Shown piece after piece: positions 5,219 to 55,665 of a DNA stretch of 64,000 bases. A program made the translations under genes and the position numbers. How positions within the stretch are numbered: position 1 is the stretch's first letter; each line of letters opens with the position of its first letter. This DNA comes from Spirochaetota bacterium (GTDB lineage Bacteria; Spirochaetota; UBA4802; UBA5550): NCBI GenBank assembly GCA_050298055.1, contig JBNKTL010000003.1, forward strand, positions 77,186-141,185, in the 5' to 3' direction. The notes below the pieces were generated by a model. That model did no database searches and had not been told where the DNA came from. It was given only the letters and a program-made list of their open reading frames with translations.

Positions 5219-5236
5219 ATGCGCTATTTCCTGTTT

Positions 5237-15551: not shown

Positions 15552-15780
15552 TCTTAGCGAGCGCAGCGTGGCTCATCTCGATACGATCCTGCTCACAAAG
15601 TAGCCAGGAAACGGTATATAGAGATGCAGGATCACTCGATGAGCATCTGTACTTCGACTACATGATTTGGTGCAAAATCATGCGGGCTCAGCACTAGTTG
15701 AGTTCCCCGAGTGATTTGCCGTTTTATGAATTCAGTGCTTTCTGTTTTTAAAATGCGGCAAATTGTATCGAGGGGAACAG
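15552..15780. repeat. Composite palindromic intergenic repeat, copy 1 (modules X, Z and Y).
   Basis: Module X (15552-15650) and module Y (15704-15780) recur at 21641-21846. Module Z (about 15651-15702, ggtgcaaaatcatgcgggctcagcac) recurs at about 32316-32347. Each module is internally palindromic; for example Y has the stem atttgccg...cggcaaat. Confidence 0.6.
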
Positions 15781-16202: not shown

Positions 16203-16362
16203 CTGTTCGGCTATATATAAAAGAGGAAGTAACGATTCAGCTATGTATAAAAATAATTATATTTAACAATAAAGATAACCGGTATGTCCGCGCTGCCCTG
16301 GGCAGAGACATATTGTTGATATTTTAGAAAACAGGTTGAGCATAGCCATACAGCTGAGTAGT
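16203..16362. repeat. MITE-like palindromic repeat element, copy D.
   Basis: The left arm is ctgttcggctatatataaaag / attcagctatgtataaaaataattat. The central GC hairpin is atgtccgcgctgccctgggcagagacat followed by attgttgat. The right arm is catagccatacagctgagtag. It lies just upstream of the GGDEF gene. Confidence 0.55.
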
Positions 16363-16418
16363 TTCAAAAGAGACAATTTGTCAAAAACAGAAGTGTTATA
16401 CATATTTTTATATTTCAG

Positions 16419-21566: not shown

Positions 21567-21640
21567 ATGAATGTAGATATTGAGCAATGAGTTGTTTCTC
21601 TGTCAATAGAATAAAAAGGGAGAAGAGTCAGGAAACACAA

Positions 21641-21846
21641 CAGGTGCTCATCGAGTGATCCTGCATCTCTATATACCGTTTCCTGGCTACTTTGTGAGCA
21701 GGATCGTATCAAGGTGAGCTTCGCTCGCTATGACAGCTCTTTTTAATCTAAAATTAAAACTCTTCTCTGTTCCCCTCGATACAATTTGCCGCATTTTAAA
21801 ACACAAAGCACTGAATCAATAAAGCGGCAAATCACTCGGGGAACAC
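21641..21846. repeat. Composite palindromic intergenic repeat, copy 2 (modules X and Y, without Z).
   Basis: 21641-21732 matches the reverse complement of 15552-15650, and 21768-21846 matches the reverse complement of 15704-15780. Because each module is itself palindromic, the relative orientation of the two copies is ambiguous. Confidence 0.6.
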
Positions 21847-21874
21847 AACAGAATGACTGCATCCCTCAATCTTC

Positions 21875-24929: not shown

Positions 24930-25322
24930 AACCGGATCGTTAAACATTAAGGAATACGCTACAACCGAATACTGTTAATGGCCGGGTTAGTTACGCATTA
25001 AGGAAAACAACCCGGAGAAATATGCCCGTTACTCTGAGAAGGGATCCATTTCCCTCAGGGAAAGGGATCAGATCCTTTTTGCGTAATTCCCGATCTTATC
25101 AAGCCATTTTTTCCGTTTCTCATTACTCATGCCTGTAACGGAACCCACCTTGATCACTTTCACCTTCTTTATTCCGCAGAATTTAATTGTTCCCCTGACC
25201 AGGGACCCTTTGAGAGGATTGCCCACAAAATAATCGTAGTAGAAGTTTGGTCCCATCATTGTTGTTATCACTGTGGCTCCCTTTATATGGGTCAGAAGTA
25301 TGTATTCATAATGATATGTTTC

Positions 25323-25451
25323 TGCTCAGCTATATGGCTATAATCAACCTATTTACTCAAATACAGACAATATGTCCCCGCCGCCGAAGGCAGCGGGGAC
25401 ATCAGTTATCTTTTTGATGAATATAATTATTCTTATACATAGCTGAGTAGT
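25323..25451. repeat. MITE-like palindromic repeat element, copy A.
   Basis: Left arm ctgctcagctatatggctataatc. Central hairpin tgtccccgccgccgaaggcagcggggaca. Right arm gatgaatataattattcttatacatagctgagtag. Confidence 0.6.
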
Positions 25452-25633
25452 TACAATGATTTAAACAAAAACTCCTTATAAAACTGTCACTTTTTTCTAT
25501 CACTCCTTTTAACATCTGAATTTACTCAACTGTATGTTAAATAAATTAATTTTCTCGCCCCTGTAAACGAATAGTTACACAATCAATAATTATTCCGGTT
25601 GACATTTTGCATAAAATTCCTTAAATAAATTTT

Positions 25634-33506: not shown

Positions 33507-36500
33507 GTACCAGAATCCCCCGAAGGGGGACTTTAAGATTTTAGTTGGAGGTAATGGGATGAGAACAGAGATCTTTAACGGGTGGGATTTTATTCACAAC
33601 TTTCGACTAACATTTCGTAAAACATTTAGGCTGCGCTTTCTCGGGTTATATGTTTCAATAATAATCGCGTCTTTAATGAGCTGCAGTGACGGGGCGGTCA
33701 ACGCCTACCTGGACTATGAACCGAACAGGGCGCCGCAGATCCTAGACCTGCAAAGCGATTTCACCGGCCTGCCTGTTCCCGGGGATATCATGACCGTAAG
33801 CTGTGAAACCTATGACCCCGACGGGAACCCTCTCACCTACGACTTTACCTCAGGCCAGGGGAGCTTCACGGGCCAGCAGGACAGGGAGGGAAAAAGTGAA
33901 ATAACATTTGTTGTGGGCAATATTTCCGGGGGTGAAGAGGTCACTGTCTCCGTACAGGTCACCGACAGCAAAAACGCCTCTGCCGCAGCCACCCTCAATA
34001 TCGGAACAAGCAGCCTGGGCCCGGCAATCACCCTTCTGGGATCGGATAACAGGACCATAGGGGCCGATGGGTATTCAGCGGTGACATTCAGGTCAAGCAT
34101 GGACGGCTTTTACCAGGTTGATCTCGCAGACAGCGGAATAACCGGAGATGAAATAGATCCGGATGGATATTTCTTTTTTATTCAAAAGAACACCGATACT
34201 GTTTTCAATATATGCGGTACCAGCTATAGTGATAATGAATGTATTGCCGGTATTCCGAAACTCGAAACCGATTCTGCAAACAGTGTCTTCATCAAGGTCA
34301 TGGACGGTATGGGGCAGATTTCTGTTCGTGAGATCGTAATTACCGTGCTGGGTACCACTCCCGTTGTGGGAAACCCGGAGATACGTATTACCGATCTGAA
34401 GGATGACGCCATGACCCTTAACTGGAACTTTGCAACAGACCTGGATAACCCCGAAGCCGGTGAGCAACAGCAGGGGATGGACTACAGTGTCTATATGTCT
34501 GAGAATGATAATATCTCCACACTGGAAGACGTGGAATCTTACGGGAACAGAGTAATGGATTGGAAAGCTGATCTAAATTTCTTTACTGTTACCGGTCTTG
34601 CTCCTTCCACTACATATTATTTTAATGTAGTGGTGATGGATGGTGACGGGGTGAAGGAGGTTTATGGGGGTGTTGAGGGGAGGACGGAGGAGAGGACATA
34701 TTTTCAGGTAATCTCCACTGTGCCGGCCCCGGATGTTACTGATGTTGATATTAATTCCAAAATTGTGATAGCATTTAACAGGGAGTTAAACGAGGAAACC
34801 GTCAATGAGGATACGATTGTCCTGAAAGATACCCATGGTGATGAAATTCCTGTGAAACTCAGTCTCTCCGGCAGTAATATGGTTATTATCGTTGAACCTG
34901 TGGACAATCTTGATTATGGGATGAAGTATTATATGACTGTTTCTTCCGGTATGGAAGATGTTCAGGGGGATGGTCTCGGGGATGATTATGTTTTTGGGTT
35001 TTCTACGAAAGTCAGGTGTACAAGCTGTTTTGTGACAACGTGGAAAACGGATAATCCCGGGACTTCGGAGGATGATCAGATCACTATTCCGGTTTATAGT
35101 GGTGAAACTTATGATTATTCTGTAGATTGGGGGGATGGGAGCAGTGATGAACATCTCACAGGGAGTGCAACCCATACTTATGATGTTCCTGGTATTTATA
35201 CCGTTAGCATATCCGGGACATTTCCAAGGATATACTTTTTTAATTCCGGGGATAGGGAAAAAATATTGACAATTGAGAGTTGGGGGGAGATTGAATGGAC
35301 GAGTATGGCATCTGCATTTTTCGGATGTAGTAACCTCACATATAACGCTACAGATGCCCCTAATCTTTCCGGTGTTACTGTTATGAATTATATGTTCTAT
35401 AATGCACTTTCTTTAAACGGAGATTTCAGTGGATGGGACGTCAGTAATGTTGCAGATATGAGCTCTATGTTTGCGTACGCCACTTCATTCAACGGCGATA
35501 TTAGCAGCTGGGATGTAAGCAGTGTTACAAATATGTATGGTATGTTTTGGAATGCTACTTCATTTAACAGAGATCTCAATAACTGGGATGTTAAAAATGT
35601 TATTAATATGTTCTTAATGTTTGGAACTGCTACTTCTTTTAATGGAAATATCAGCGGATGGGACGTTAGTAATGTTACTAATATGTCTGGCATGTTTGAG
35701 TCTGCCACTTCATTCAACGGAGATATTAGCAACTGGGATGTAAGCAGTGTTACAAATATGTATGGTATGTTTTGGAATGCTACAACATTTAACGGGGATA
35801 TAAGTGGATGGGATGTTAGCAATGTTACAGATATGAGATTGATGTTTCGTAATGCTTCTACTTTTTCAAATCATGATCTTAATGGTTGGGATGTTAGTAG
35901 TGTCAAAGTAATGAGTTCTATGTTTAATGGAGCTTCTTCTTTTAATGGAGATATCAGCAACTGGAACGTTAGTAATGTTAAAGATATGATCTATATGTTT
36001 TATAATGCCACTTCATTCAACGGTGATATCAGCAGGTGGGATGTCAGTAGTGTTACAGATATGTACGGCATGTTTCGGAATGCCACTTCATTCAACGGTG
36101 ATATCAGCAGGTGGGATGTCAGTAATGTTAAAAATATGAGTTCTATGTTTAATGGAGCTTCTTCTTTTAATGGAGATATCATTAACTGGAACGTTAATAA
36201 TGTTAAAAATATGATCTATATGTTTAATAATGCCATTTCATTTAACAGAGATATTAACAAATGGGATGTGAGTAGTGTTACTAATATGTATGGGATGTTT
36301 TGGGGCGCAAGTACTTTTAACGGGGATATGAGCAACTGGGATGTCAGCAATGTCACTAATATGGCATTTATGTTTTATAACGCTTCTGATTTTAATGGAG
36401 ACACCAGCAGATGGGACGTCAGTAATGTTATATATATGGATAGCATGTTTTTTGGTGCTCGTTCTTTTAACGGAGATATCAGCGGCTGGGATGTCAGCAG

Positions 36501-37095
36501 TGTCACTGATATGAGCAATATGTTTTATAACGCAAAATCATTTGAGAAAGATATCAGTGATTGGGATGTAAGTAGTGTAACTAATATGAAATTTATGTTT
36601 TTTGGTTCCTCTTCTTTTAACGGAGATATAAACGGATGGGATGTCAGCAGTGTCACAAATATGAATGCAATGTTTGCTTACGCCACTTCTTTTAACAGGG
36701 ATATCAGCAGGTGGGAGGTAAATAGCGTCAAAAGTATGGTAAGTATGTTTTGTGGGGCTTCTTCTTTCAATGGAGATATTAGTAGCTGGAACGTCAGCAA
36801 TGTCACAGACATGAACTCTATGTTTTATAACGCTACTTCTTTTGACAAAGATATCAGCAAATGGGATGTTAGCAGTGTAACAAATATGACAGGGATGTTT
36901 CGAGGCACAACTTCATTTAATGGAGACATAAGTAACTGGGATGTCAGTAGTGTTATAAATATGAGTTATATGTTTTATAACGCATCTGCTTTTTCATACC
37001 ACAATCTCAGCGACTGGGATGTTGAAAATGTTACTGATCACACGGGATTTTCAACAGGATGGGGAGATGGGAATATGGAGCCTGAGTGGCCGTGA
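33496..37095 (+). CDS. Large surface lipoprotein with N-terminal Ig-like domains and about 22 tandem DUF285 (BspA/Mycoplasma-type) repeats.
   Basis: 1199 aa. The likely true start is MRTEIF (33556), with signal and lipobox IIIASLMSC. From about residue 620 the 25-aa unit FNGDIS.WDVS.VT.M..MF....S repeats continuously. Confidence 0.75.
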   Translation: MFFEYQNPPKGDFKILVGGNGMRTEIFNGWDFIHNFRLTFRKTFRLRFLGLYVSIIIASLMSCSDGAVNAYLDYEPNRAPQILDLQSDFTGLPVPGDIMTVSCETYDPDGNPLTYDFTSGQGSFTGQQDREGKSEITFVVGNISGGEEVTVSVQVTDSKNASAAATLNIGTSSLGPAITLLGSDNRTIGADGYSAVTFRSSMDGFYQVDLADSGITGDEIDPDGYFFFIQKNTDTVFNICGTSYSDNECIAGIPKLETDSANSVFIKVMDGMGQISVREIVITVLGTTPVVGNPEIRITDLKDDAMTLNWNFATDLDNPEAGEQQQGMDYSVYMSENDNISTLEDVESYGNRVMDWKADLNFFTVTGLAPSTTYYFNVVVMDGDGVKEVYGGVEGRTEERTYFQVISTVPAPDVTDVDINSKIVIAFNRELNEETVNEDTIVLKDTHGDEIPVKLSLSGSNMVIIVEPVDNLDYGMKYYMTVSSGMEDVQGDGLGDDYVFGFSTKVRCTSCFVTTWKTDNPGTSEDDQITIPVYSGETYDYSVDWGDGSSDEHLTGSATHTYDVPGIYTVSISGTFPRIYFFNSGDREKILTIESWGEIEWTSMASAFFGCSNLTYNATDAPNLSGVTVMNYMFYNALSLNGDFSGWDVSNVADMSSMFAYATSFNGDISSWDVSSVTNMYGMFWNATSFNRDLNNWDVKNVINMFLMFGTATSFNGNISGWDVSNVTNMSGMFESATSFNGDISNWDVSSVTNMYGMFWNATTFNGDISGWDVSNVTDMRLMFRNASTFSNHDLNGWDVSSVKVMSSMFNGASSFNGDISNWNVSNVKDMIYMFYNATSFNGDISRWDVSSVTDMYGMFRNATSFNGDISRWDVSNVKNMSSMFNGASSFNGDIINWNVNNVKNMIYMFNNAISFNRDINKWDVSSVTNMYGMFWGASTFNGDMSNWDVSNVTNMAFMFYNASDFNGDTSRWDVSNVIYMDSMFFGARSFNGDISGWDVSSVTDMSNMFYNAKSFEKDISDWDVSSVTNMKFMFFGSSSFNGDINGWDVSSVTNMNAMFAYATSFNRDISRWEVNSVKSMVSMFCGASSFNGDISSWNVSNVTDMNSMFYNATSFDKDISKWDVSSVTNMTGMFRGTTSFNGDISNWDVSSVINMSYMFYNASAFSYHNLSDWDVENVTDHTGFSTGWGDGNMEPEWP
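35350..37010 (+). repeat. Tandem coding repeat array of DUF285 units, 75 nt each.
   Basis: About 22 consecutive units with the conserved core tggga(t/c)gt(c/t)agcagtgt.acaaatatg...atgtttt. Several units are near-identical at the DNA level, for example 36000-36075 versus 36070-36145. Confidence 0.7.
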
Positions 37096-40576: not shown

Positions 40577-40855
40577 TATTGTATTATATTGATTAAAAAA
40601 ACGAATCTTCTTAATGTGATGTATATTAATACTTCATATATATTAAAAAAGAGTAAATTTTCTTGATTTTTATCGCAAAACTCACTAACTTTGCCCATTA
40701 ATACAACATCTTTTTTTAGAAAGTATACACTTTTTAATGGAATATCTGGTACTCAATATTAATGAAATTCTAATAAAATAGAGAATTAATTTCAACAAAA
40801 ATTGAAAAAAAATAGAAAAATCAAATAATATCTTTAATATTAATAATATAAAATG

Positions 40856-40970
40856 AATAACTACTCAACTATATATCCCCATCACCTTAAGTTGTGGGTA
40901 TTTATTAGTTTTATTTTTTTACTGAATATAATTATTCCTAATACATTATTCACATTGTTGAGTAGTTATT
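40856..40970. repeat. MITE-like palindromic repeat element, copy E (variant).
   Basis: Perfect 14-bp terminal inverted repeats aataactactcaac ... gttgagtagttatt. The internal tract gaatataattattcctaatacat is shared with copy A. A weak central hairpin is cccatcaccttaagttgtggg. Confidence 0.6.
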
Positions 40971-40988
40971 AAAATTACAGGTTTAATT

Positions 40989-43433
40989 TTGAAAAAATTA
41001 TCTAAGAGTATAAAAAATTATAAACTTTTTTCCCCTGTATTAATAATTGCCCTGGTTTTTTTGGTTACCACCAGGTCAAAGGGCGCAATAACATCCATAA
41101 CTTTGACACCGGGAAATCCCACGACCTTATCCAATACACTTGGTTATTATCTTGCGGGCAGACAATATACATTTACTGTAAATGTCAAGGATCCTGCCGC
41201 AACAGCATGGGCAGATATCACAGAGGTACGTCTCAATATACCTAATGGACCGGCAATTGAATTATGGGTGAACCCATCAGGTACAGGAGCTCAGACAATT
41301 AATTATGTGTCAGGAGTAACATCCGATGTATCTGCAAATATCCCAGGTACTGATACTTATAATGATTTTGATGTCCAGTTTACCATAACTGTATTGTGGA
41401 ACATTGCAGAATCCAGTTGGGCAGCATCAAGAGTAATTACAGCACAGGCTGTATCATCAAATACATTAAGTACAACTCAGAATGTTTCCTATGGAGTATG
41501 TTCTTCCATAAGATTTAATAATTTTGCCCAGGATTTAGACGCACTTGATGGTTATGTAAGCCCCTGGCACAATGCCTTTAACGTTACAGGGGCAATTGTT
41601 TATGATGTGCCTGGAGCGACAAATAGTGATAAGGTCTATTTTGTAAATGGAGGTTCGGAACTTACCAGTGTAAGATTATTGCATAATGGAGTTGACACAA
41701 CTGGCATGAGTACTCCTCTTACTGCTGATTCCGCTTTTACGAATGATGCTAACGACGATGTCTCTATTACTGTATCTGCTGCGTTTTTTAATAGCAATAG
41801 CTTAGCATTAAGTACTTTGCCATGGACAGTTCAAGCCTATTTCTCAACAGGAAGTGGATCTGAGGTTTCCAGCAATTCTTTAAATATTACAAATGAAAGG
41901 GTGGAAGTTACATCTGTAAGGTTAATAAATGGCGGCGGTACGGATTTATCTCCTGTGCCACCTCCCGAAGCCAGGGTCTATAACCGGTCAGTTAATGTTT
42001 CAGGTGTGCAACTTCAGGTTTACGCAAGGATGCAGGGCTCTACAGGAACTGTTATTGGGAATACAACTGTTAGAGTAAGGGACATTACTGATACTATTGA
42101 TTATGATGTTGTTATAAACAATGGCACAAATGTTGGGACAGTAAATCTTTCAGCGTTTTCTTATCCAACAACTCCGGCAACTGCTGGAAATACAAATACA
42201 CACACCTATCAGGTTACAAATATTTCAGGAAGTGTAACTGACAGTAATCAAAATGTTTATGCAAGGATCCTTCAACCTGGGAATAATGGAGGATCCGATA
42301 CTATTGTCTATTGGGATAATGCCGACCAGCCCGGTAATAATGGATCATCATTTACAACCTTTCAAGCAACACCATGGTCATCAACTGCAGATTCATTTAC
42401 AATTAATTGGAATGCTATTCCCAACGGTACTACATTTGACGGGGATTTTTATACTTACAGGATATATTATCAATTGCCAAGTACAGTGTGGAATATGTTA
42501 GATGTCAGTACCGGAGGTATCTATACTGCCTTGGGCACTTATACAACAAATACTATTGATATTTCAGGGCTTGCTCCATTAACTGACTACCCTTTTAGAG
42601 TTTCGGCAGTAGATGTTTATGGCAACGAAGTTGTACTGGCTGACATGCTAACTGATACAGCCAGTACAAAACCATCATCACTTACCGTATCAATATCTGA
42701 TGGAATAACCACATATGAAGATTCATCTTTCACAGGAAACCAGCTCGCTACAGCAAGACCAGTAAGAAAATCATCAATAAAAGTAACTCTTTACCTCGTA
42801 ACTGGAGGAAATGAACCTGATGAGATCAACCTGATTATTGGTGACAATTCTCTTGAACCAGCAACTATTCTGGGTAGTACATATTATACAATACCCAGTA
42901 CAAAAAAATCATCAAATACATGGGTTGCATATATACCCAGCACACATACACTTATGTCTTTAAATGAATCTATAAGGTTTATCGTGGAAACAAAATATCA
43001 AGGAACAAGTACTTATGTTGATCATGATGCAGACTATAATCCTGCAGAGCAGTTGCCTGCAGGTGAAGATTATAATAACTGGGAATATACTTTTACTATT
43101 TCAAAACCAACCACCTTCTCCCCCTGGCCCACACGCATTCTGAACAACGTCATCACGGACAAAAACCCCGTGGCCTACCCGGCATACTACCTCACCGAGG
43201 ACGCCAATGTGACAATAAGGGTCTATGACATAAAGGGAAGGCCGGTTGTGACCCTGCTGGACAATGCCTTCAGGCGGAGCGGCCAGAACATCAAGGAGAA
43301 CGGCTGGCGGGGGATCAACAAATCAAGCAGGATGCTGGGACCCGGTCTCTATTATATGCATTTCAGGGCCAAAAGTTCTTCCAGCGGGAAGGTCATACTC
43401 AACAAGTTCAAAAAGGTGGTCATCGCGAAGTAA
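40989..43433 (+). CDS. Large secreted protein with a C-terminal T9SS-type sorting domain (Por secretion CTD-like); it begins with a TTG start.
   Basis: Signal peptide present. Thr/Ser/Asn-rich beta-type repeats with an FN3-like region. The C-terminal 80 aa (VTIRVYDIKGRPVVTLLDN...GPGLYYMHFRAKSSSSGKVILNKFKKVV) resemble the T9SS CTD (TIGR04183-like). Confidence 0.65.
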   Translation: MKKLSKSIKNYKLFSPVLIIALVFLVTTRSKGAITSITLTPGNPTTLSNTLGYYLAGRQYTFTVNVKDPAATAWADITEVRLNIPNGPAIELWVNPSGTGAQTINYVSGVTSDVSANIPGTDTYNDFDVQFTITVLWNIAESSWAASRVITAQAVSSNTLSTTQNVSYGVCSSIRFNNFAQDLDALDGYVSPWHNAFNVTGAIVYDVPGATNSDKVYFVNGGSELTSVRLLHNGVDTTGMSTPLTADSAFTNDANDDVSITVSAAFFNSNSLALSTLPWTVQAYFSTGSGSEVSSNSLNITNERVEVTSVRLINGGGTDLSPVPPPEARVYNRSVNVSGVQLQVYARMQGSTGTVIGNTTVRVRDITDTIDYDVVINNGTNVGTVNLSAFSYPTTPATAGNTNTHTYQVTNISGSVTDSNQNVYARILQPGNNGGSDTIVYWDNADQPGNNGSSFTTFQATPWSSTADSFTINWNAIPNGTTFDGDFYTYRIYYQLPSTVWNMLDVSTGGIYTALGTYTTNTIDISGLAPLTDYPFRVSAVDVYGNEVVLADMLTDTASTKPSSLTVSISDGITTYEDSSFTGNQLATARPVRKSSIKVTLYLVTGGNEPDEINLIIGDNSLEPATILGSTYYTIPSTKKSSNTWVAYIPSTHTLMSLNESIRFIVETKYQGTSTYVDHDADYNPAEQLPAGEDYNNWEYTFTISKPTTFSPWPTRILNNVITDKNPVAYPAYYLTEDANVTIRVYDIKGRPVVTLLDNAFRRSGQNIKENGWRGINKSSRMLGPGLYYMHFRAKSSSSGKVILNKFKKVVIAK

Positions 43434-46767: not shown

Positions 46768-47820
46768 ATGAAGTACTGGAACAGCATTTTAAAAAATATG
46801 ACGGAATATTTACCCGGTGAGCAGCCGGAAGATATTGATGAGTATATAAAACTTAACACCAATGAAAATCCCTTCCCGCCGCCCCCCTCTGTCCTTGAAG
46901 CCATAAAGAACGCCTGCACGGAGAGGCTCCGCCGGTACCCCGACTCGCGGGCAGAAGTGCTCAGGAAGATGTTTGCCTCCCAGAACGGTCTCTCGTCCGA
47001 GAATATTTTTATCGGTAACGGCTCAGATGAGATATTTACCCTGATCTTCAGGGCATTCATTGAGAGAGGGGGAACGGTGGCATTGCCCTATCCCTCATAC
47101 CCACTTTATGATGTGCTCGCGGAAGCCAACGGGGTTAAATATGAAAAGATCAACCTTGAAAAAGACTTCAGCTATAATCTCAAGTCTTTTCTCCGGAAAA
47201 AATATGACCTGGTCATTATCTGCAACCCGAACAATCCCACCGGAACATATTGCGAAGTTGATGAAATAAGGGAGTTTCTCACCAGTTACAGGGGACTCTG
47301 TGTGGTTGATGAAGCATATATTGATTTCTACAGCGGCTCGGCTCTTTCACTGGTAAATACCTTTGATAACATTATTGTCACACGGTCCTTTTCAAAATCC
47401 TACTCCCTGGCGGGGCTGCGGATCGGTCTCGCGGCGGCGGAGAAAAGCATTATCGAAGGATTCCTCAAGATAAAAGACTCATATAATGTTGATATTCTGG
47501 CAATTGAGGGAGCGAAAGCCGCTCTTACCGACTGGAAAGGGATAAAATATAACCTTGAGATGGTAAAAAACAATAAGGAATACCTGGAAGAATACCTGGT
47601 GGGAACCGGTTTCGAAATAATACCGTCCCGGGCAAATTTTATTTTTGTCCGTCACCCCGCCGTAAGTTCAGAAGAAATTTACACAAAGCTTAAAAAAAAG
47701 AAGATCCTGGTAAGATACTTTTCCGGGAACATCAGGTCTGAATATATTAGAATAAGTATTGGTACAATGATGGAGATAAAGGCACTCTGCGGTGAACTGG
47801 AAGCTATAGTTGGAGCTTGA
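46768..47820 (+). CDS. hisC: Histidinol-phosphate aminotransferase.
   Basis: Signature LNTNENPFPPP, the PLP-lysine region FSKSYSLAGLRIG, and a class-II aminotransferase fold. The start is placed at MKYWNS. Confidence 0.85.
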   Translation: MKYWNSILKNMTEYLPGEQPEDIDEYIKLNTNENPFPPPPSVLEAIKNACTERLRRYPDSRAEVLRKMFASQNGLSSENIFIGNGSDEIFTLIFRAFIERGGTVALPYPSYPLYDVLAEANGVKYEKINLEKDFSYNLKSFLRKKYDLVIICNPNNPTGTYCEVDEIREFLTSYRGLCVVDEAYIDFYSGSALSLVNTFDNIIVTRSFSKSYSLAGLRIGLAAAEKSIIEGFLKIKDSYNVDILAIEGAKAALTDWKGIKYNLEMVKNNKEYLEEYLVGTGFEIIPSRANFIFVRHPAVSSEEIYTKLKKKKILVRYFSGNIRSEYIRISIGTMMEIKALCGELEAIVGA

Positions 47821-48451
47821 TAATTTTGCCGTAGGTATCGGTTATGGTGCTTTTCTGGATGAGCTCATCAATGGTGAGGTTTCGTTTTTCAAACCTGATA
47901 ATATCATCCTCATTGATCCAGATATTGACCTGTTCGGCCCTTGAATAAGACCTCCATTTAAACCCGATGACCATCCCCACAATCTCTTTCTCCTCAAAGA
48001 TGCTCCGGCATGAATTCACCGTGTCACTGATCTCCCGGATATTCTTTTTCAGCAGTTCAACTGCCACCCGCCCGTATGGATTATCGTCTGTTATCCCGGT
48101 ATCAACATCAAGCCCGAGATAGAGCTTATCCTTTTGCTGGGACTTTCTATCAAAATAAAATCCTATGCTTCCCCTGACGATCTTCAGCTTCTTATTATCA
48201 ACAATATCCACTGCCACTCCAATAAGCAGCTTGTAATATTTTTCCTGGTAGAGCGCTCCGTTGGTGGTATATTTTTTTATATCAACAATAAGGTCTTTAT
48301 ATTTATTGTCCTGCTCCTTACTGTACTGTTTCAGTATCTTCTCTTCTCTCTTTTTATCAGGTTTCCCGCTACCGGTTTTTACTGATTTTGAACCGCAGGT
48401 TGAGAAAAAGAGGATGGTGAGTATTGTGACAGTTATCGATGTATTTCTCAT
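47804..48451 (-). CDS. Hypothetical lipoprotein.
   Basis: Signal and lipobox (ITVTILTILFFSTCGSKS) when started at MRNTS (48451). The longer provided ORF from 48625 adds an unlikely N-terminal extension. It overlaps the hisC 3' end by 17 nt. Confidence 0.5.
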   Translation of the reverse strand: MRNTSITVTILTILFFSTCGSKSVKTGSGKPDKKREEKILKQYSKEQDNKYKDLIVDIKKYTTNGALYQEKYYKLLIGVAVDIVDNKKLKIVRGSIGFYFDRKSQQKDKLYLGLDVDTGITDDNPYGRVAVELLKKNIREISDTVNSCRSIFEEKEIVGMVIGFKWRSYSRAEQVNIWINEDDIIRFEKRNLTIDELIQKSTITDTYGKIIKLQL

Positions 48452-48590
48452 AGGTCTGTTGTCGTTCCTGTTTTTTCTATTTACAGGAATGAGCATGGTT
48501 ATGTCAAGATAAAATGTTGGAGATGCTCTTTTCCCCAGACGATACCTGACTCTTTGACTTTGTAAATACAAAACAGAAGTAAAATATATC

Positions 48591-49886
48591 TTGACGAAAA
48601 CCGGTCTGATGCCAAAAAAAAGCATGCTTTCAGATAATAAAAAAACAAACAGATTTCTATTTCTTCTGCTGCTTTCCGCATACCTGTTCCTTACAGAATG
48701 TACTTCTTCCGGCGGTTATTATCATCTTAACAGAAATAATCACAGGGTTAAGACCGGTCTTGAAGTCTTCATAAAAGATCACGCATACAGGTACAGGGGT
48801 GTGAAGACAATACTTGTCACAAATCACTCGGGAGTGAATTTCACCCTGAGACAGAACATAGGCCTGTTAAGGGAAAAAGGAATACCAATTGTACTGGTTC
48901 TGGCACCGGAACACGGTCTGCACGGATACCAGAACCAGTTTGACGAAAATCTTTACATTGAGAAGAAAAAACAGAACCTCCTGGTCTACAACCTTCATAA
49001 ACTCAGTGACAATTCATTAAAACTGCTCTTAAAAAGCGCCGGCCTTGTGCTCTTCGACATACAGGACATGGGGATGAGGTGTTATACCTATATATCAAAC
49101 CTTAAGCATATAATGGACACTCTTAAAGGGACTAAAACCGAACTCCTTGTGCTGGACAGACCCAACCCCATATCATTTCTGGGAGTAGACGGTCCGTATC
49201 TAAACAGTAAGTTTAAAACGAAATTTATCAGCTCCTTTCCCGCGCCGTTTATCTATGATATGACAATTGGTGAAGCGGCAAATTACTACAGACACGAATA
49301 CGCGCGAAGTGTAAAGCTGGAGATAATCAAGATGGCCAACTATGACAGGGACATGCTCTACAGCGAAACGGGGCTCCCCTGGGTTCCCCCCTCACCCAAT
49401 CTTCCCACATATGAGTCCTCGATAATATATGCGGCAGTGGTCCTTATGGAGGGGATCAACATATCACTGGGAAGGGGGACAACCAAACCCTTTGAATTTA
49501 TCGGGGCCCCCTGGATAGAGCCCTCCTCGTTCTTAAAAAAGATCAGGAACCTCGGGTTAAAAAACTTCAGGTTCAGGCCCATATATTTCAAGCCGACATT
49601 CAACCATTATGAGGGAGAAAAGTGCGGAGGAGTCCAGATATTCTATACCGGGGGAAAATTCAGCCCCACGGAATTTTCATACAGGGTGATTCAACTTTTA
49701 ATGAAGGAATATAAAAACGTCGCCTGGCGTGCACACAGTGGATTTTACAGCGTAGACCATCTTGCAGGCACCGACCTTTTCAGAAAATCCATTAGCAGAG
49801 GCCTGACATATGAGAGTTTTTATAAAAGGTTAGTCAAAGATCTGGAGAAATATAAAGGAAAGAGAGAGGACTATTTATTGTATTAA
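48591..49886 (+). CDS. DUF1343-family protein (NamZ/YbbC-like exo-beta-N-acetylmuramidase family).
   Basis: N-terminal signal. Conserved DUF1343 blocks: KTILVTNHSGVNF, LVLAPEHGLHGY, and a PNPISFLGVD-type region. Confidence 0.7.
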   Translation: MTKTGLMPKKSMLSDNKKTNRFLFLLLLSAYLFLTECTSSGGYYHLNRNNHRVKTGLEVFIKDHAYRYRGVKTILVTNHSGVNFTLRQNIGLLREKGIPIVLVLAPEHGLHGYQNQFDENLYIEKKKQNLLVYNLHKLSDNSLKLLLKSAGLVLFDIQDMGMRCYTYISNLKHIMDTLKGTKTELLVLDRPNPISFLGVDGPYLNSKFKTKFISSFPAPFIYDMTIGEAANYYRHEYARSVKLEIIKMANYDRDMLYSETGLPWVPPSPNLPTYESSIIYAAVVLMEGINISLGRGTTKPFEFIGAPWIEPSSFLKKIRNLGLKNFRFRPIYFKPTFNHYEGEKCGGVQIFYTGGKFSPTEFSYRVIQLLMKEYKNVAWRAHSGFYSVDHLAGTDLFRKSISRGLTYESFYKRLVKDLEKYKGKREDYLLY

Positions 49887-49979: not shown

Positions 49980-52445
49980 CTACATCTGGAGAAATTTTAA
50001 ATACTCTTCAATCTCTTCCGGATATTTACCCTCTCCGTCCTGGTACTTCTTGTATCTTCTGAGAAATGCCTGGTAGGTCTTTGCGGATACGTTCTTATAC
50101 CTGTTGGCAAACTTGTTGAAAGCCGGCATGCTTTCCAGCCTGTCCCTGATCTCCTGCCTGAACGGGATATGTTTAAAAAACATTCCCCGGACAATATTGT
50201 TCATCTTCATGATACCGTCCTTTTCAAAAAGCACCCAGAGAAGATAATCGTCGGCAAACCTGTCCCTGTTTGTTCTCAGGCTCTTGAACCTCATGGTTAT
50301 CTTATCCTTGGCCTCCATGGAGAGATTGGGATTCTTCTTATAGGTATTAACATAGTCAAAATACTCACCGGTGATCCCCCCTTCAATGGGGTCCGCCCAC
50401 ATTGCCTGTCCCTTAATGGTCCTGTTGAGCTCCCAGCGGAAACAGGCAAGGGTATGCGCGATACTCTTCCTCAGGTCACCCATAAAAAATATCGGGACAA
50501 CAATCCTCCCCCGGGACCTCTTGTCGATACCGGAAAGTTCCTGCCAGAGAAGGGTCCGTGTTCCGAATATGGGAAGCATGATAAAATAGGGCAGCACCTC
50601 CTCCTGGATGATCTCCCGGGCATCCCCCAGCTTCAGAACGGTCTCTCGCAGGAAAACGGAAAAATCGATATCCATGATCTCCCTGACAATGTCACTGATC
50701 TTCTTTTTTGAGCTGTAGAGCGACTTGAGGCTTCCCTTGACGGCATATTCGTTTAAAATAGGAAAAGCGGTTGCGGTGGACCCTGAACAGACCGCGGAGG
50801 TACTCCTGAGCCGCTGTTCAATCTCATATACGGTTTTTTTCAGGTTTTCATCCTCAATCTCATTCTTCATCTCTTCCGATTTTTTCCTGGTCGCGTGTTT
50901 GGCTTCCTCCCTGAGATGCGCTTCGTAAGTAAGCCCCATCTCGGTGATACTGGGCATCTCCTCACCGGAATGAATAAGAGAGAGGAAATCCTGTTCATAA
51001 AAGACGGGAATATCCGCTGTCTCCTCTCTCATTCTCAGCAGTTCAAGAAGATCATTTATCTGGGCATCTTCAAGAAGAGCTTCGTCAACAAACCCGTAGT
51101 TGAGCATAAGACGTACCGGAATGGGGAGGTTCGACTCAGCTTTGCTTCTGATGTATACCTGTTTGTAAAGCTGCCAGTACATTTTGGTGATAAATCTTCT
51201 TATCTTGCGTCCTTCTGTTTCGGTATCAAAGGGATTTTTCATCCCTTTAAAATCATTGAGAAGCTTGATGAACCGCTCCCGGAACTCCTTGTCAATAACT
51301 GAGAATTCAAATATCTGGTTCATGGACCGGGCAACTTCCTTTATGTTCCCCTTTGAAGCGGAAGCCGCACTCCTTTCAGGTGCTGGGGCCCCCTGTCTTG
51401 CCCCGGCCGGGGCTGCTTTCCCGCCGGTCTTAAAGTAAAGATGGATCCTTTTCAGGCCGGGAAATTCCGCGGTAAGTTTACGGCCGGAAACCTCCTCATA
51501 GACTGAATTGATCTTAACAATAAGGGTCAGAAAATCCTTCACAAAACCGTCATGAAGCCGCCCTGTGCTTTTCCACTGGTCAAATCCCCCGTTATCGGTA
51601 AGGAAGGTGGTCCAGCTTACGCCGTCCCCGAAAAGCCTGTTCATGACCTTGTAGACATGCGAATTCATTCGTTCAATATCATTCAGGACCGCAATAAGAT
51701 TTCCCGTCAGGGCGCTGTGCATCATGGCACCGATCTCAGGATCTGATTTAACCATGGATGAAGAAATCGTCCCATCAAGCATCAGGATCCTTTTCACAAA
51801 CTCATTGAGATCACGGTTGCCCGACCCGTCATCTCCTGTTTCAATTGAGTAGTCTTTATTGAAATACCTGCTGCTGTCAGTCACAAGAAATTTTGCCGTG
51901 AACTCCCGGGGGATTTCTCCCCCGCCGGATTTATATTCATTGTAGAGATCATTGGCATTCATATCAAGTTTCTCATCGGCGCCTGAAACCGAGAGTTCCT
52001 TATAAATGAGTGAGATATTATCGCTGACCCTGGATACGTTTCCGTAGAGCTTGTTTATCTTATCCGTACTTTCGGAAAAGCTTTTCTTCAGTGTATAGAG
52101 GTGTTTGAGGATATTAAGGGCCCTGGCAGGATCGGAACGGGACAGCATCTTAAATCCGCCGCTGACCGGGATCCTGGTTACCAGGGAATCTGCTATTGCC
52201 CTCACTGTCATTGTCCCCGGTTTTACCAGGTCGGGGCTGAATGAGGGAACCGCTCTCTTACCCGATAACACCCCCACCCGGGTACTCTTGGAGAGAATTA
52301 TCGACGGATCGAGACCGTCAAACTCATCTGAAGCCGACAGGATTTCCAGCGCACCGTCCTGAAGAAAAAATATCTCCTTCGGGATATTACCCTGGTAAAA
52401 GAGAACATCTCCTTTTTTTACCTGCTGTCCTGCATTACCTGTCAT
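49980..52445 (-). CDS. Large hypothetical protein with an N-terminal cNMP-binding-like domain.
   Basis: 821 aa. The N-terminal beta-barrel-like region is KGDVLFYQGNIPKEIFFLQDGALEIL. A Pro/Ala-rich linker (GGKAAPAGARQGAPAPE) sits near residue 350. The C-terminal half is helical. Its start overlaps the HNH gene by 11 nt. Confidence 0.6.
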   Translation of the reverse strand: MTGNAGQQVKKGDVLFYQGNIPKEIFFLQDGALEILSASDEFDGLDPSIILSKSTRVGVLSGKRAVPSFSPDLVKPGTMTVRAIADSLVTRIPVSGGFKMLSRSDPARALNILKHLYTLKKSFSESTDKINKLYGNVSRVSDNISLIYKELSVSGADEKLDMNANDLYNEYKSGGGEIPREFTAKFLVTDSSRYFNKDYSIETGDDGSGNRDLNEFVKRILMLDGTISSSMVKSDPEIGAMMHSALTGNLIAVLNDIERMNSHVYKVMNRLFGDGVSWTTFLTDNGGFDQWKSTGRLHDGFVKDFLTLIVKINSVYEEVSGRKLTAEFPGLKRIHLYFKTGGKAAPAGARQGAPAPERSAASASKGNIKEVARSMNQIFEFSVIDKEFRERFIKLLNDFKGMKNPFDTETEGRKIRRFITKMYWQLYKQVYIRSKAESNLPIPVRLMLNYGFVDEALLEDAQINDLLELLRMREETADIPVFYEQDFLSLIHSGEEMPSITEMGLTYEAHLREEAKHATRKKSEEMKNEIEDENLKKTVYEIEQRLRSTSAVCSGSTATAFPILNEYAVKGSLKSLYSSKKKISDIVREIMDIDFSVFLRETVLKLGDAREIIQEEVLPYFIMLPIFGTRTLLWQELSGIDKRSRGRIVVPIFFMGDLRKSIAHTLACFRWELNRTIKGQAMWADPIEGGITGEYFDYVNTYKKNPNLSMEAKDKITMRFKSLRTNRDRFADDYLLWVLFEKDGIMKMNNIVRGMFFKHIPFRQEIRDRLESMPAFNKFANRYKNVSAKTYQAFLRRYKKYQDGEGKYPEEIEEYLKFLQM

Positions 52446-52809
52446 CTTCCGGTCCTTCTCCTTCGGATTTTTTCAAACTGTTTATATACTCCTCCCACTC
52501 AAGGGGAAGGAGATATTTTTTCTTATTATTACACTCTTTGCATGCCGGGACAAGATTGTTTTTTTCCGACCGTCCCCCTTTTGAGAGAGGAATTTTGTGA
52601 TCCATGGTCAGATCACCGGGATTGAATTTTTTTCTGCAGTAGTGGCAGATACCGGTTGAAGTTTTCTTCCTCCACCAAGGGGATTTTCTCAACTCCCTGG
52701 CCCTGTTTTTTTCAGAAGCTATTACAGATTGTTCACTCACACCGGTGAAATAATTATGCCCTTTGTCCCTTCTCAGCCTCTTCGATCTTTTTCTGTCCCT
52801 GTATGACAT
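52435..52809 (-). CDS. Small HNH endonuclease.
   Basis: HNH motif CHYCRKKFNPGDLTMDHKIPLSKGGRSEKNNLVPACKECNNKK, preceded by a basic N-terminal tail. Confidence 0.7.
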   Translation of the reverse strand: MSYRDRKRSKRLRRDKGHNYFTGVSEQSVIASEKNRARELRKSPWWRKKTSTGICHYCRKKFNPGDLTMDHKIPLSKGGRSEKNNLVPACKECNNKKKYLLPLEWEEYINSLKKSEGEGPEDDR

Positions 52810-52854
52810 AGTTTAGTAATTCTCTCTTAAATAAGCTAATTTGTCAATTAGTAA

Positions 52855-52986
52855 CTTCTCATCTATGTATAAAAATTGGCATGTTAACAAAAAACAAGAC
52901 TGGTGTGTCCCTGCCACCGGAGGCGGCGGGGTCACATTGTTGATGCTTTTATTGAATAAACATATTTTTTAATCATATAGCTGGGT
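52855..52986. repeat. MITE-like palindromic repeat element, copy C.
   Basis: Left arm cttctcatctatgtataaaaattgg. Central hairpin gtccctgccaccggaggcggcggggtcac followed by attgttgat and a T-run. Right arm atcatatagctgggtc. Confidence 0.55.
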
Positions 52987-53105
52987 CTTTACGTCAATGA
53001 CTATTAAAACCCTGCACTTCAAGGGGTAAATCAACATCAGGGAAAAATAATTGTTGTCATAAAAAGCTCTCTCTGTAAAGATATACAAGAATTCTGCAAC
53101 AGTAT

Positions 53106-53765
53106 ATGTTTAAAATTATGAGAAAAGCAGGCTTTGTTATCATAATCATTTTATCTCTCAGCATAATCGATCCGGGATCTTCCCCGGCAGGGGACGGCTG
53201 GAAACTGGTGACAGCCAAAAACGGGATCAGTGTATTTACCCGGCCGGCCCGGGATTCCAGAGTCGATGAATTCAAGGCCGTCATCACAATAAAGTCGGAA
53301 CTTAAAGTGCTGGGGGAAGTCATGAAGGATATCCCCGCCCAGCCCCAATGGATTGCCGACTGTACTCAAGCAAAAGTTGTAAAGAGGATCAACAAGAGTG
53401 TGCTGGTAATCTATTCCGTATATAAAACCCCGTGGCCCGTCACAGACAGGGACACAGTCATTGAAACCGTTACCCGGGTGGACCCGGCATACAGGTGGTT
53501 TACGATTAATATGAAATCAGTGGATTCTTACCACGTCCCTGTAAAGAATAACCTGGTGAGGGTCAGGAAGTTGAAAGGGAAATGGACTTTCAGAAAAACA
53601 GGGAAGAAGAGCGTCCGGGTAACCTACAGGCTCAGTGTGGACCCCGGCGGTTCACTCCCCCTCTGGCTTGCCAACCGGACCAGCAGGGAATCCCCCTATA
53701 CCACTCTCCTTAACCTGAGAAAAATGGTTACGTTAAAAAAATACCAGAAAAAGGAAAAGAATTAG
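53106..53765 (+). CDS. Secreted START/Bet v1-like (SRPBCC) lipid-binding domain protein.
   Basis: Signal peptide present. START-like blocks: WKLVTAKNGISVF, YKTPWPVTDRDTV, and a C-terminal amphipathic helix. Confidence 0.65.
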   Translation: MFKIMRKAGFVIIIILSLSIIDPGSSPAGDGWKLVTAKNGISVFTRPARDSRVDEFKAVITIKSELKVLGEVMKDIPAQPQWIADCTQAKVVKRINKSVLVIYSVYKTPWPVTDRDTVIETVTRVDPAYRWFTINMKSVDSYHVPVKNNLVRVRKLKGKWTFRKTGKKSVRVTYRLSVDPGGSLPLWLANRTSRESPYTTLLNLRKMVTLKKYQKKEKN

Positions 53766-53889: not shown

Positions 53890-54825
53890 CTATTCAAAAA
53901 ACTCTTCACTCTCCCCGATCCTGTAGCCGTTGAGAAAAGAGAGCCCGTCCATGAGTTTTTTGTTTTCCGGCTGTATACCTGTTATCTCCAGCAGGCCGCT
54001 GCCCGTACCCGCGGCCAGCCTCTTTTTCATAAACTTACCCAGCTGCCCCGGCTTCAGTTCAAGAGCGGTCTCTTCTTTTAACAGGGACACTGTCCATATT
54101 TTCATGTTCTTTCCCCTGAACGTGGTCCACGCCACAGGTTTGGGATTAAGCCCCCTTACAAGATTGCGGATATCTTCTGAACCCAGGGACCAGTCAATAT
54201 GCGCAGTCTCTCTCCCGATCTTTTCGCAGTAGCTTGCCTCACTCTCATCCTGCTTTACCGGTACCACGCTCCCCTCTGCCAGCGACACGATTGCCCTGTT
54301 GAGGAGAGCTCCGCTTATCCCAATCACATGATTGTAGAGATCTTCCGCGGTCCAGGCCTCGTCAATGGGTATTCTCTCCCGGACAACAATATCACCCGCG
54401 TCCATTCTGCCGCTTATCATCTGTACCGTAACACCTGTCTCTTTTTCCCCGTTGATCAATGCCCACTGGACCGGGGCGGCCCCCCTGTACCTGGGGAGGA
54501 GAGAGGGATGAAGATTGATGCTCTTCAGGGGAGGGAGAGTGAAGACCTCCTCCGGGATCATGAGACCGTAGGCCACCACCACGAAAATATCCGCATGATA
54601 GCTTTTTAGGACTTCGATGAAATCGGGATCAGAGAGGTCGCAGGGCTGCAGGACATCGATCTCCCTGCAGAGGGCAAGGTCCTTTACGGGACAGAATTTA
54701 ATCTTCCGGTTCCTTCCGCACGGCTTGTCTTCCGCGGTTACCACAAAGAGCACCTCGTGCTCTTCGAGCAACTCATCAAGACAGCGGCCTGATATTTCCG
54801 GTGTGCCGAAAAAACCTATCTTCAC
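53890..54825 (-). CDS. fmt: Methionyl-tRNA formyltransferase.
   Basis: Motifs MKIGFFGTPE, SLLPRYRGAAPVQWALING and HNVI. It overlaps def by 4 nt. Confidence 0.9.
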   Translation of the reverse strand: MKIGFFGTPEISGRCLDELLEEHEVLFVVTAEDKPCGRNRKIKFCPVKDLALCREIDVLQPCDLSDPDFIEVLKSYHADIFVVVAYGLMIPEEVFTLPPLKSINLHPSLLPRYRGAAPVQWALINGEKETGVTVQMISGRMDAGDIVVRERIPIDEAWTAEDLYNHVIGISGALLNRAIVSLAEGSVVPVKQDESEASYCEKIGRETAHIDWSLGSEDIRNLVRGLNPKPVAWTTFRGKNMKIWTVSLLKEETALELKPGQLGKFMKKRLAAGTGSGLLEITGIQPENKKLMDGLSFLNGYRIGESEEFFE

Positions 54826-55346
54826 GAGTCCCTGTTCATCTTCTTAATCTTTTTAAGCTGGGATTTCAACTCTTTCCGGACATAGTCATCCAGGTGATCG
54901 ATAAAGACCTTTCCATTGAGATGGTCTATCTCATGCTGCAAGACCCTGGCAAGGAGCCCGTCAGCCTCAAGCTCTATCTCCTTCTCCTCAGGGGTGATCC
55001 CCGCAAGAAGTATCTTCTCCGGACGTATGATTTCACTGTTTATCCCGGGCAGCGAAAGACAGCCCTCCTCATAGGGGACCTCCTCGGAGGAAAACTCCTT
55101 TATCACAGGGTTAATAATTGTCAGCGCCGGCCCGTTGTAGTTTTCAATATCAACAACAATAAGCCTTTTTGAGACATCAACCTGCGGAGCAGCCAGTCCG
55201 ATCCCCTTCTCTTTATACATGACATTGTACATGGAGTCAATGAGCTCATTAACTTCACCGTCAATGTTCTTCACCTCATCAGCCACCGCCTTAAGGGTAT
55301 CGTTGCCGTAATAGACCAGGTTATATTTCATTTTTCTTTTAAACAT
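54822..55346 (-). CDS. def: Peptide deformylase.
   Basis: Motifs GIGLAAPQV, EGCLSLPG and HEIDHLNG. Confidence 0.9.
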   Translation of the reverse strand: MFKRKMKYNLVYYGNDTLKAVADEVKNIDGEVNELIDSMYNVMYKEKGIGLAAPQVDVSKRLIVVDIENYNGPALTIINPVIKEFSSEEVPYEEGCLSLPGINSEIIRPEKILLAGITPEEKEIELEADGLLARVLQHEIDHLNGKVFIDHLDDYVRKELKSQLKKIKKMNRDS

Positions 55347-55590: not shown

Positions 55591-55665
55591 GGGGTGTTAG
55601 CTCAGTTTGGTTAGAGTACCTGCCTGTCACGCAGGGGGTCGCGAGTTCGAGTCTCGTACACCCCG
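55591..55665 (+). tRNA. tRNA-Asp (anticodon GTC).
   Basis: GGGGTGTTAGCTCAGTTTGGTTAGAGTACCTGCCTGTCACGCAGGGGGTCGCGAGTTCGAGTCTCGTACACCCCG. It folds as a cloverleaf with anticodon loop CTGTCAC and T-loop GTTCGAGTC. The 3' CCA is not encoded. Confidence 0.9.

Follow-up and report, generated by a model that had tools for sequence, protein, structure and literature searches.

In uncultured, Leptospirales-like Spirochaetota, an HNH endonuclease gene and the gene for an 821-amino-acid (aa) protein form an operon that is restricted to this clade and passed on vertically. The pair lies in the window (the whole 64,000-nt stretch of DNA that was analyzed) and looks like an inherited chromosomal module and not a mobile anti-phage system. 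Judged by its sequence, the small protein belongs to the Gmet_0936 family of Zn-ribbon HNH nickases, its catalytic residues being intact; the large protein ends in a novel, strongly conserved domain of 455 aa. Our tentative reading, in which our confidence is modest, is that the large protein serves in this operon as a ligand-sensing partner for the HNH nickase, recruiting, positioning or gating it in a chromosomal role of the repair or recombination type.

Conservation and spacing of the gene pair

Both open reading frames named in the preliminary description of the locus were found in the sequence on the minus strand, with the 124-aa HNH gene, also recognized by Pfam PF01844, at 52435..52809 and the 821-aa large gene at 49980..52445, stop codon included. 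They overlap by 11 nt (52435..52445, minus strand), as the TAA stop of the HNH gene lies at 52437-52435 and the ATG of the large gene at 52445-52443; a Shine-Dalgarno-like AAGGAG/GAAGGA precedes this ATG at 52453-52463. A match to a sigma-70-like promoter (TTGACA-17-GAGAAT, 10/12, by consensus alone) sits closely upstream of the HNH start at 52819..52847 on the minus strand.

The pair was identified in 99 GTDB species genomes, all from a single lineage, with one locus per contig and the syntenic order def-fmt-HNH-large gene-(namZ)-hyp273-hisC; close relatives of the large protein fell into 34 clusters. The earlier proposal that the two genes form a unit was borne out, as an HNH gene was found directly upstream and on the same strand in all 72 related loci with at least 700 nt of upstream sequence, each with a conserved HNH, and upstream and co-oriented in 75 of 75 loci when any upstream DNA was counted. 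Absence or lack of linkage of the HNH gene in all related genomes had been named as grounds for abandoning this proposal; the gene is linked in all close relatives. The borders of the pair are far less stable: the fmt-HNH junction is kept in 46 of 68 related loci and the junction downstream of the large gene in 37 of 70, with 12 neighbor families upstream, 19 downstream and no break inside the pair. The pair has thus stayed intact despite at least 29 rearrangements at its flanking junctions (at least 11 distinct changes upstream and at least 18 downstream), identifying it as a real cassette. In a sister assembly, a transposase and new genes directly follow the large gene, leaving the pair undisturbed.

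The overlap had been taken to imply tight translational coupling, which does not hold in general. The spacing between the HNH and large genes ranges from -29 to +381 nt in relatives and exceeds 45 nt in approximately 60% of loci, and at two loci (L006 and L002) the HNH frame closes at an in-frame TAG 9 nt ahead of the large-gene ATG. The 11-nt overlap is specific to the window genome and is no family trait. No locus, including those with long spacers, has a gene between the two, and Rfam gave no match in eight loci with long spacers.

The HNH protein belongs to the Gmet_0936 family

The 124-aa protein matched the Pfam HNH model (PF01844) with an E value of 1e-14 and 54.8 bits, against a cutoff of 21.4 bits, and PDB entry 4H9D (Gmet_0936 from Geobacter metallireducens) with an E value of 3.5e-39 and 58 of 96 residues identical (~60%). 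Aligned to the residues named in PMC3765158, its predicted catalytic residues are D70-H71, N85 and N94 and its predicted zinc ligands C55, C58, C90 and C93, equivalent to D53-H54, N68 and N77 and to C38/C41/C73/C76 in 4H9D; it is accordingly of the Zn-ribbon, H-N-N, Gmet_0936/4H9D-like type. The Pfam score and the alignment of the catalytic and CxxC...CxxC zinc residues place it among the HNH / His-Me finger nucleases, whose hallmarks are a beta-beta-alpha-metal motif, a catalytic His, conserved Asn residues and, in group 1, such a zinc site; 4H9D has been assigned to group 1 (Jablonska et al. 2017). With its length and identity it also falls within the Gmet_0936-like proteins, defined as being of 92 to 133 aa and sharing >50% identity with Gmet_0936 (PMC3765158). 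The two proteins share the zinc ribbon, the size class and the D-H / N / N set, in which Asn replaces the last His. The window protein differs in having 18 additional aa that form a basic tail at its N terminus (pI of the protein, 9.8), and the HNH of its clade differs in always being encoded directly upstream of the large sensor-like protein.

The Geobacter protein, the only one characterized, forms a dimer and prefers AP-site DNA (Xu et al. 2013, PMC3765158). Its DNA binding is weak and nonspecific, as is its Mn-dependent nicking, and its authors proposed the need for a partner (PMC3765158). The Gmet_0936 family has a crystal structure yet no known biological role, and the cassette nominates a candidate partner.

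The large protein joins a CRP/FNR-type barrel to a novel C-terminal domain

The cNMP-like barrel noted earlier at the N terminus was recovered by Foldseek, with a subthreshold Pfam match, as a CRP/FNR-type effector-binding beta-barrel (residues 1 to 95) followed by a long C-helix (residues 106 to 151), together encoded at 51993..52445 on the minus strand. The Pfam cNMP_binding model (PF00027) scored 21.5 bits, under its 27.5-bit cutoff, whereas some relatives exceed that cutoff (e.g., 44.8 bits), and the AlphaFold model matched PrfA, CAP and FNR in Foldseek with E values of ~1e-4 to 1e-5 (best, 4.5e-5). On these profile and model matches, residues 1 to 151 probably constitute a ligand-sensing and dimerization module. 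The phosphate-binding cassette of PF00027 has the motif Gly-Glu ... Arg-(Ser/Thr/Ala)-Ala. In alignment A1, R82-A83 is kept at the position of this cassette and the canonical Glu is replaced; thus, the large protein is no more than a candidate cNMP binder. Conservation of the ligand pocket does not extend over the superfamily, with G31 the sole invariant residue of the N-terminal domain. The barrel and C-helix fold is common to the CRP/FNR effector domains (CAP, FNR, PrfA and NtcA), but the window protein lacks their C-terminal helix-turn-helix and instead carries the 455-aa domain within 670 residues. Members of the family bear generic names ("cyclic nucleotide-binding domain-containing protein," "CRP-like cAMP-binding protein," "Crp/Fnr family transcriptional regulator" and "hypothetical protein"). 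Identity as a CRP/FNR transcription factor was considered and rejected, as no helix-turn-helix family was detected and the 670 further residues comprise unrelated domains.

The middle of the protein (residues 152 to 342; 51420..51992, minus strand) is helical in the AlphaFold model, with pLDDT mostly 80 to 92, and had no Pfam or NCBIfam match. It is followed by the Pro/Ala-rich linker of the preliminary description (residues 343 to 366; 51348..51419, minus strand), which is disordered (pLDDT <50), gap-rich and variable in the family alignment.

Residues 367 to 821 (49983..51347, minus strand) were modeled as an alpha/beta domain with a pTM of 0.75. This half had been described as long and helical; however, AlphaFold places a beta-sheet core of five strands within it (residues 599 to 654). 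Across 129 representatives, some 20 residues of the domain are invariant in the superfamily, including S499, E541, D594, R600, P619, P625, G628, W634, Q635, R647, W671, G679, W683, D697, Y698, F730, Y734, E741 and R753. The HMM, AlphaFold and Foldseek analyses that had been suggested for the 821-aa protein matched it to no known housekeeping family: scans against Pfam, NCBIfam, PADLOC and PHROGs returned the subthreshold cNMP_binding match only, sequence and profile searches of the PDB with the large protein or its C-terminal domain found no match, Foldseek of the C-terminal model against the PDB and BFVD gave nothing significant, and 17 C-terminal domains scanned against Pfam at E values of up to 10 gave noise only. 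Pfam thus has no entry for the domain, and no structural relative of it is detectable.

The best fold matches, all nonsignificant, were to zincin peptidases in two independent libraries: the BoNT/B light chain (E = 1.1) among PDB structures and M3A/M3B-type peptidases (E = 0.08 to 0.3) among BFVD models. The succession of a beta-sheet and a conserved helix (residues 658 to 675) resembles zincin topology. Together with the closeness of the pair to def-fmt, these matches favor a reading in which the large protein would be an enzyme under ligand control, its degenerate zincin-like (M3/M27) C-terminal domain acting on a protein or peptide, and the HNH protein an accessory Zn-ribbon subunit instead of a working nuclease. 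We consider this very unlikely, as the TM-scores are ~0.13 and the match probabilities do not exceed 0.08, an HExxH motif is absent, H664 is unconserved across the superfamily, Pfam gives no Peptidase_M3 signal even at E values of up to 10, and the HNH protein retains all of its catalytic residues.

Each gene occurs alone in other lineages

Clustering of the C-terminal domain at 50% identity defined a large family without functional annotation, comprising 665 clusters from Spirochaetota and Lachnospiraceae, with human-gut members among the Lachnospiraceae carriers; the query of the metagenome scan was the Lachnospiraceae-type alignment A5. All distant relatives of the large gene, in other Spirochaetota and in Lachnospiraceae, are without an adjacent HNH gene, none being found in 7 out-group contexts and 80 Lachnospiraceae-type loci, and nothing significant was recovered in a search for HNH remnants beside out-group large genes. 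Conversely, Nitrospirota homologues of the HNH gene are solitary and occupy a fixed site beside mraZ. Stand-alone HNH proteins resemble the linked ones as much as the linked ones resemble one another. A literature search found no report of an HNH and cNMP-domain pairing.

These distributions bear on whether the two products work together. In a rival reading, which we rate only slightly lower than a partnership, each gene works independently of the other and the two simply sit in one inherited operon. The HNH protein would be a housekeeping nuclease acting alone, like its counterparts in Nitrospirota and Geobacter, and the large protein a sensor or enzyme that likewise acts alone, as it would in other Spirochaetota and in Lachnospiraceae; adjacency would then persist because breaking the operon is costly. 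Such independence is consistent with the solitary occurrence of each gene, with the similarity of stand-alone to linked HNH proteins, with an overlap that is unconserved and spacers that reach 381 nt, and with the def-fmt-HNH-large gene block being itself largely syntenic. Against it stand the absence of any break in the pair over 72 loci, compared with the at least 11 and at least 18 changes at the flanking junctions, and the lack of an intervening gene even at long-spacer loci, which could accept insertions.

Under the partner reading that we tentatively favor, the large protein would dimerize, probably through its C-helix, and sense a small molecule, perhaps a cyclic nucleotide as putative ligand. 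It may then recruit, position or gate an HNH nickase that is feeble and nonspecific by itself, in chromosomal DNA processing of the repair or recombination type and not in phage defense. Several observations count against a partner role: each gene occurs without the other in other lineages, spacers of up to 381 nt permit independent expression, the ligand pocket is unconserved in the superfamily, and no charge difference in the C-terminal domain separates HNH-linked from unlinked clades.

A bolder version, which we regard as unlikely, has the C-terminal domain as a new effector or enzyme fold to which the Leptospirales-like clade recruited a Gmet_0936-type HNH, yielding a second-messenger-gated DNA-nicking machine whose genes belong to the core genome. 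If true, the pair would be either a genome-maintenance module of a new, signal-controlled class or an immune module that has been domesticated, and would supply Gmet_0936 nucleases with their missing partner and physiological context.

Comparison with signal-gated defense systems

Signal-gated nuclease effectors are known from CBASS, Pycsar and type III CRISPR systems, including Cap5, with SAVED and HNH domains, and Pycsar effectors with cNMP domains. The window pair is conceptually like them in associating a nucleotide-type sensor domain with an HNH nuclease, but differs in that sensor and nuclease are separate proteins and no cyclase gene accompanies them, in being core, syntenic and lineage-wide instead of mobile, and in that the large protein has no PADLOC match. 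The locus had been likened to such a defense module. The large protein would then sense a nucleotide signal or infection cue and unleash the HNH nuclease in abortive infection of the CBASS or Pycsar kind, an idea favored by the juxtaposition of a small nuclease and a large sensor-like protein, by domain-level PADLOC matches of the HNH protein to restriction enzymes, PtuB and PDC-M01B, and by the nearby MITE and strain-specific gene insertion.

The comparisons did not sustain this idea, which we hold to be highly improbable. When both components were searched against the described systems in PADLOC-DB v2, the large protein had no matches; it had none in PHROGs either, and the PADLOC matches of the HNH protein span the catalytic motif alone. 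Neither a CD-NTase nor a PycC cyclase gene occurs in the 10 kb to each side, and no other defense gene was found in the neighborhood, where the neighbors are def, fmt, namZ and hisC and not a defense island. The distribution is neither patchy nor mobile, the pair occupying a single core locus that is syntenic throughout the 99 species genomes of its lineage. Set beside def-fmt and without a nearby cyclase, this locus thus does not support a defense function. The HNH family is, moreover, strongly conserved across phyla (60 to 66% identity), unlike fast-evolving defense genes. A pair of a small nuclease and a big sensor need not mean defense; here, a housekeeping or regulatory role particular to the lineage is what the distribution and synteny indicate.

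Immediate surroundings in the window

An Rfam scan of the window identified two tRNAs and nothing else, and no compositional anomaly was seen at the locus. The preliminary description placed the pair beside def-fmt and tRNA-Asp; adjacency holds, with the correction that a START-domain gene, encoded on the other strand, stands between the pair and fmt. This gene is missing from 80 of 80 related loci. The MITE-like repeat reported next to the pair is real, with a copy at ~52851-52991. The element, approximately 140 nt long, has inverted repeats at its termini and a GC hairpin at its center; its four copies are all intergenic.

The HNH gene and the large gene in the window

On the minus strand of the window, a gene for a 124-aa HNH protein (ORF at 52435-52809) is followed by one for an 821-aa protein (ORF at 49980-52445). 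Direct reading of this strand placed the HNH stop codon, TAA, at 52437-52435 and the ATG of the large gene at 52445-52443, in agreement with the two ORFs and the 11-nt overlap of the preliminary description, and an AAGGAG/GAAGGA stretch is present 7 to 18 nt 5' of this ATG. The base composition of the pair is unremarkable. Upstream lie fmt (53890-54825), def (54822-55346), and tRNA-Asp (55591-55665), as previously described, but the pair is separated from them by a MITE-like element and by a START/polyketide-cyclase-like gene of opposite orientation (53106-53765, plus strand), located between fmt and the HNH gene. When the window genes were compared by tblastn with 80 related GTDB loci, the START-domain gene was found in none; being absent from all 80, it is a genome-specific insertion beside the MITE-like copy. 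The gene for a 273-aa protein (hyp273; 47804-48625, minus strand), which has no Pfam match and may be lipoprotein-like, overlaps the start of hisC and is a conserved neighbor in 53 of the 80 loci.

Cohesion of the pair amid rearranged flanks

In the same comparison, the HNH gene was directly upstream of and co-oriented with the large gene in 75 of the 80 loci; in the remaining five, the large gene begins at a contig edge. Counting only loci with enough flank, the junction between the two genes was kept in 72 of 72 (including L006, listed as an overlap case), compared with 46 of 68 for fmt to HNH and 37 of 70 for the large gene to namZ or hyp273. As the nearest neighbors of the pair belong to 12 families upstream and 19 downstream, there were at least 29 rearrangements in the flanks against none inside the pair. 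The proposal that the two genes are a conserved unit therefore holds, and their strict cohesion, while synteny around them erodes, points to a functional operon. It also speaks against the main rival explanation, namely functional independence of two genes that have no more than an inherited operon in common.

The overlap itself is not a general trait, as spacing in relatives ranges from -29 to +381 nt, being 35 nt or less in about 40% of loci; an Rfam scan of the long spacers found no family. At nine loci (L002, L006, L007, L009, L011, L013, L014, L038, and L039), the computed gap from HNH stop to ATG is exactly 9 nt and the two ORFs share a frame, so that read-through of the stop codon, TAG in L002 and L006 (read directly), would yield a fusion protein. 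In sister assembly GCA_050292195.1, rearrangement at the strain level has left the pair intact, the breakpoint lying immediately beyond it: at locus L098 (12622-14106), the large gene is directly followed, instead of by namZ, by a DDE transposase gene and unrelated genes (for a histidine kinase and DNA polymerase I).

The small protein belongs to a solved HNH family

The small protein (HNH, PF01844, E = 1e-14) is a member of an already known, structurally solved family, its close homolog being Gmet_0936 of Geobacter metallireducens (PDB 4H9D; E = 3.5e-39, 58 of 96 residues identical). Zinc ligands C55, C58, C90, and C93 are all kept, and the catalytic set D70-H71, N85, and N94 is complete. Gmet_0936 is a dimer that binds DNA weakly and non-specifically and shows weak, Mn-dependent nicking, preferring acid- or heat-damaged (AP-site) DNA; its authors proposed a role in DNA repair (PMC3765158). 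Since the isolated nuclease was published as weak, a partner role for the large protein is attractive.

Homologs at 60 to 70% identity occur beyond Spirochaetota. In Nitrospirota, the HNH gene stands alone and occupies one constant position, oriented divergently to mraZ and the dcw cluster. Stand-alone HNH proteins (Nitrospirota and 4H9D) formed one clade in a neighbor-joining tree, with none of the 72 linked sequences inside it, and distances from linked to stand-alone proteins were no greater than those among linked ones. At Nitrospirota loci L081 and L085-L089, the Gmet_0936-type gene (5001-5315 or 6001-6312) is divergent from mraZ-rsmH-ftsL, and a STAS-domain gene is inserted behind mraZ.

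A sensor-like large protein

A sub-threshold cNMP_binding match at residues 8-38 was the sole sequence-library match of the large protein; there was no other in Pfam, NCBIfam, PADLOC, or PHROGs, and a PDB sequence search gave no match. An AlphaFold model built with 32 homologs (mean pLDDT, 77.8) comprises a beta-barrel (residues 1-95) with a 45-residue helix, a helical stretch (about 152-342), a disordered linker rich in Pro and Ala (343-366), and a C-terminal alpha/beta domain. Foldseek matched the barrel and helix to CRP, FNR, PrfA, and NtcA (E of about 1e-4 to 1e-5). About 20 residues are invariant among 129 representatives, each 19 to 46% identical to the window protein, and all except G31 lie in the C-terminal domain, a sequence pattern that suggests an active or binding site. 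A weak structural lead points to a degenerate zincin-like enzyme, which we consider very unlikely.

The pair is real and conserved, a putative sensor-associated nuclease module; a literature search for an HNH and cNMP-domain pairing found no description. We tentatively favor a mechanism in which the large protein would serve as a ligand-gated partner or scaffold for the HNH protein and control this DNA nickase in a chromosomal role. The anti-phage defense role first proposed is very improbable, as the large protein has no defense-library match, no cyclase is nearby, the pair occupies a single syntenic core locus throughout a whole lineage, and the HNH protein is unusually conserved across phyla. 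The pair lends itself to testing.

Spread of the large-protein family and limits of the association

A word-indexed search identified 34 clusters, each of about 815 aa, in Spirochaetota MAGs only, and relatives turned up in 99 species genomes when GTDB was scanned, Spirochaetota throughout. When the C-terminal domain served as query for an exhaustive profile search, 665 clusters were recovered at 50% identity, of which 372 had E ≤ 1e-30; almost all measured 750 to 850 aa and carried the domain C-terminally. The weak N-terminal cNMP-like signal was kept in 8 of 10 sampled members. Members carrying names are from Spirochaetota, and a separate subfamily of about 755 aa, in which the label Lachnospiraceae recurs, is abundant in gut metagenomes. 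The family is sizeable and without functional annotation, and its main domain is not covered by Pfam.

Neither an HNH gene nor remnants of one were found in seven contexts of distant members (19 to 33% identity), the neighbors being UvrD; NDK; YggS and fliM; sigma-70, fliQ, and MCP; a Na/Ala symporter; ATP-grasp/HTH_8; and TetR. The HNH gene was likewise present in 0 of 80 Lachnospiraceae-type loci. In most lineages, then, the large protein suffices by itself, as does the HNH protein in Nitrospirota, where it is solitary; both points support functional independence of the two genes, which is a real possibility. The cassette arose as a novelty within a single clade of spirochaetes, whose large proteins share at least 40% identity with the window protein.

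The Lachnospiraceae-type loci (L103-L182; for example, L115 876-1550 and L126 875-1525) have a conserved divergent pair upstream, encoding a small protein of about 178 aa without a Pfam match (49 loci) and a TetR regulator (43 loci). At L092 (7434-8468), a distant family member is convergent with fliM, and at L101/L102 (6412-6672 and 6675-8006), fliQ, in the same orientation, lies 12 nt downstream of a family member and precedes an MCP gene; these flagellar and chemotaxis neighbors of two distant members may hint at a motility link.

Repeated elements in the window

The MITE-like element, of about 140 nt, is present in four intergenic copies at about 16229-16364 (plus strand), 25322-25454 (minus strand), 40825-41001, and 52851-52991 (plus strand), the last beginning 42 nt 5' of the HNH start. 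Its ends are the inverted repeats GTAACTACTCAGCTATGTAT ... ATATAGCTGAGTAGTT, with a GC-rich hairpin at the center, and it has no Rfam match. About 23 tandem 75-nt repeats (60 to 81% identity) at 35272-36999 presumably represent a repeat-protein gene. At 15565-15780 and 21640-21849, long inverted repeats in three pairs (86 nt with 94% identity, 56 nt with 89%, and 35 nt with 100%) border about 6 kb of DNA, which may be an element that is invertible or composite.
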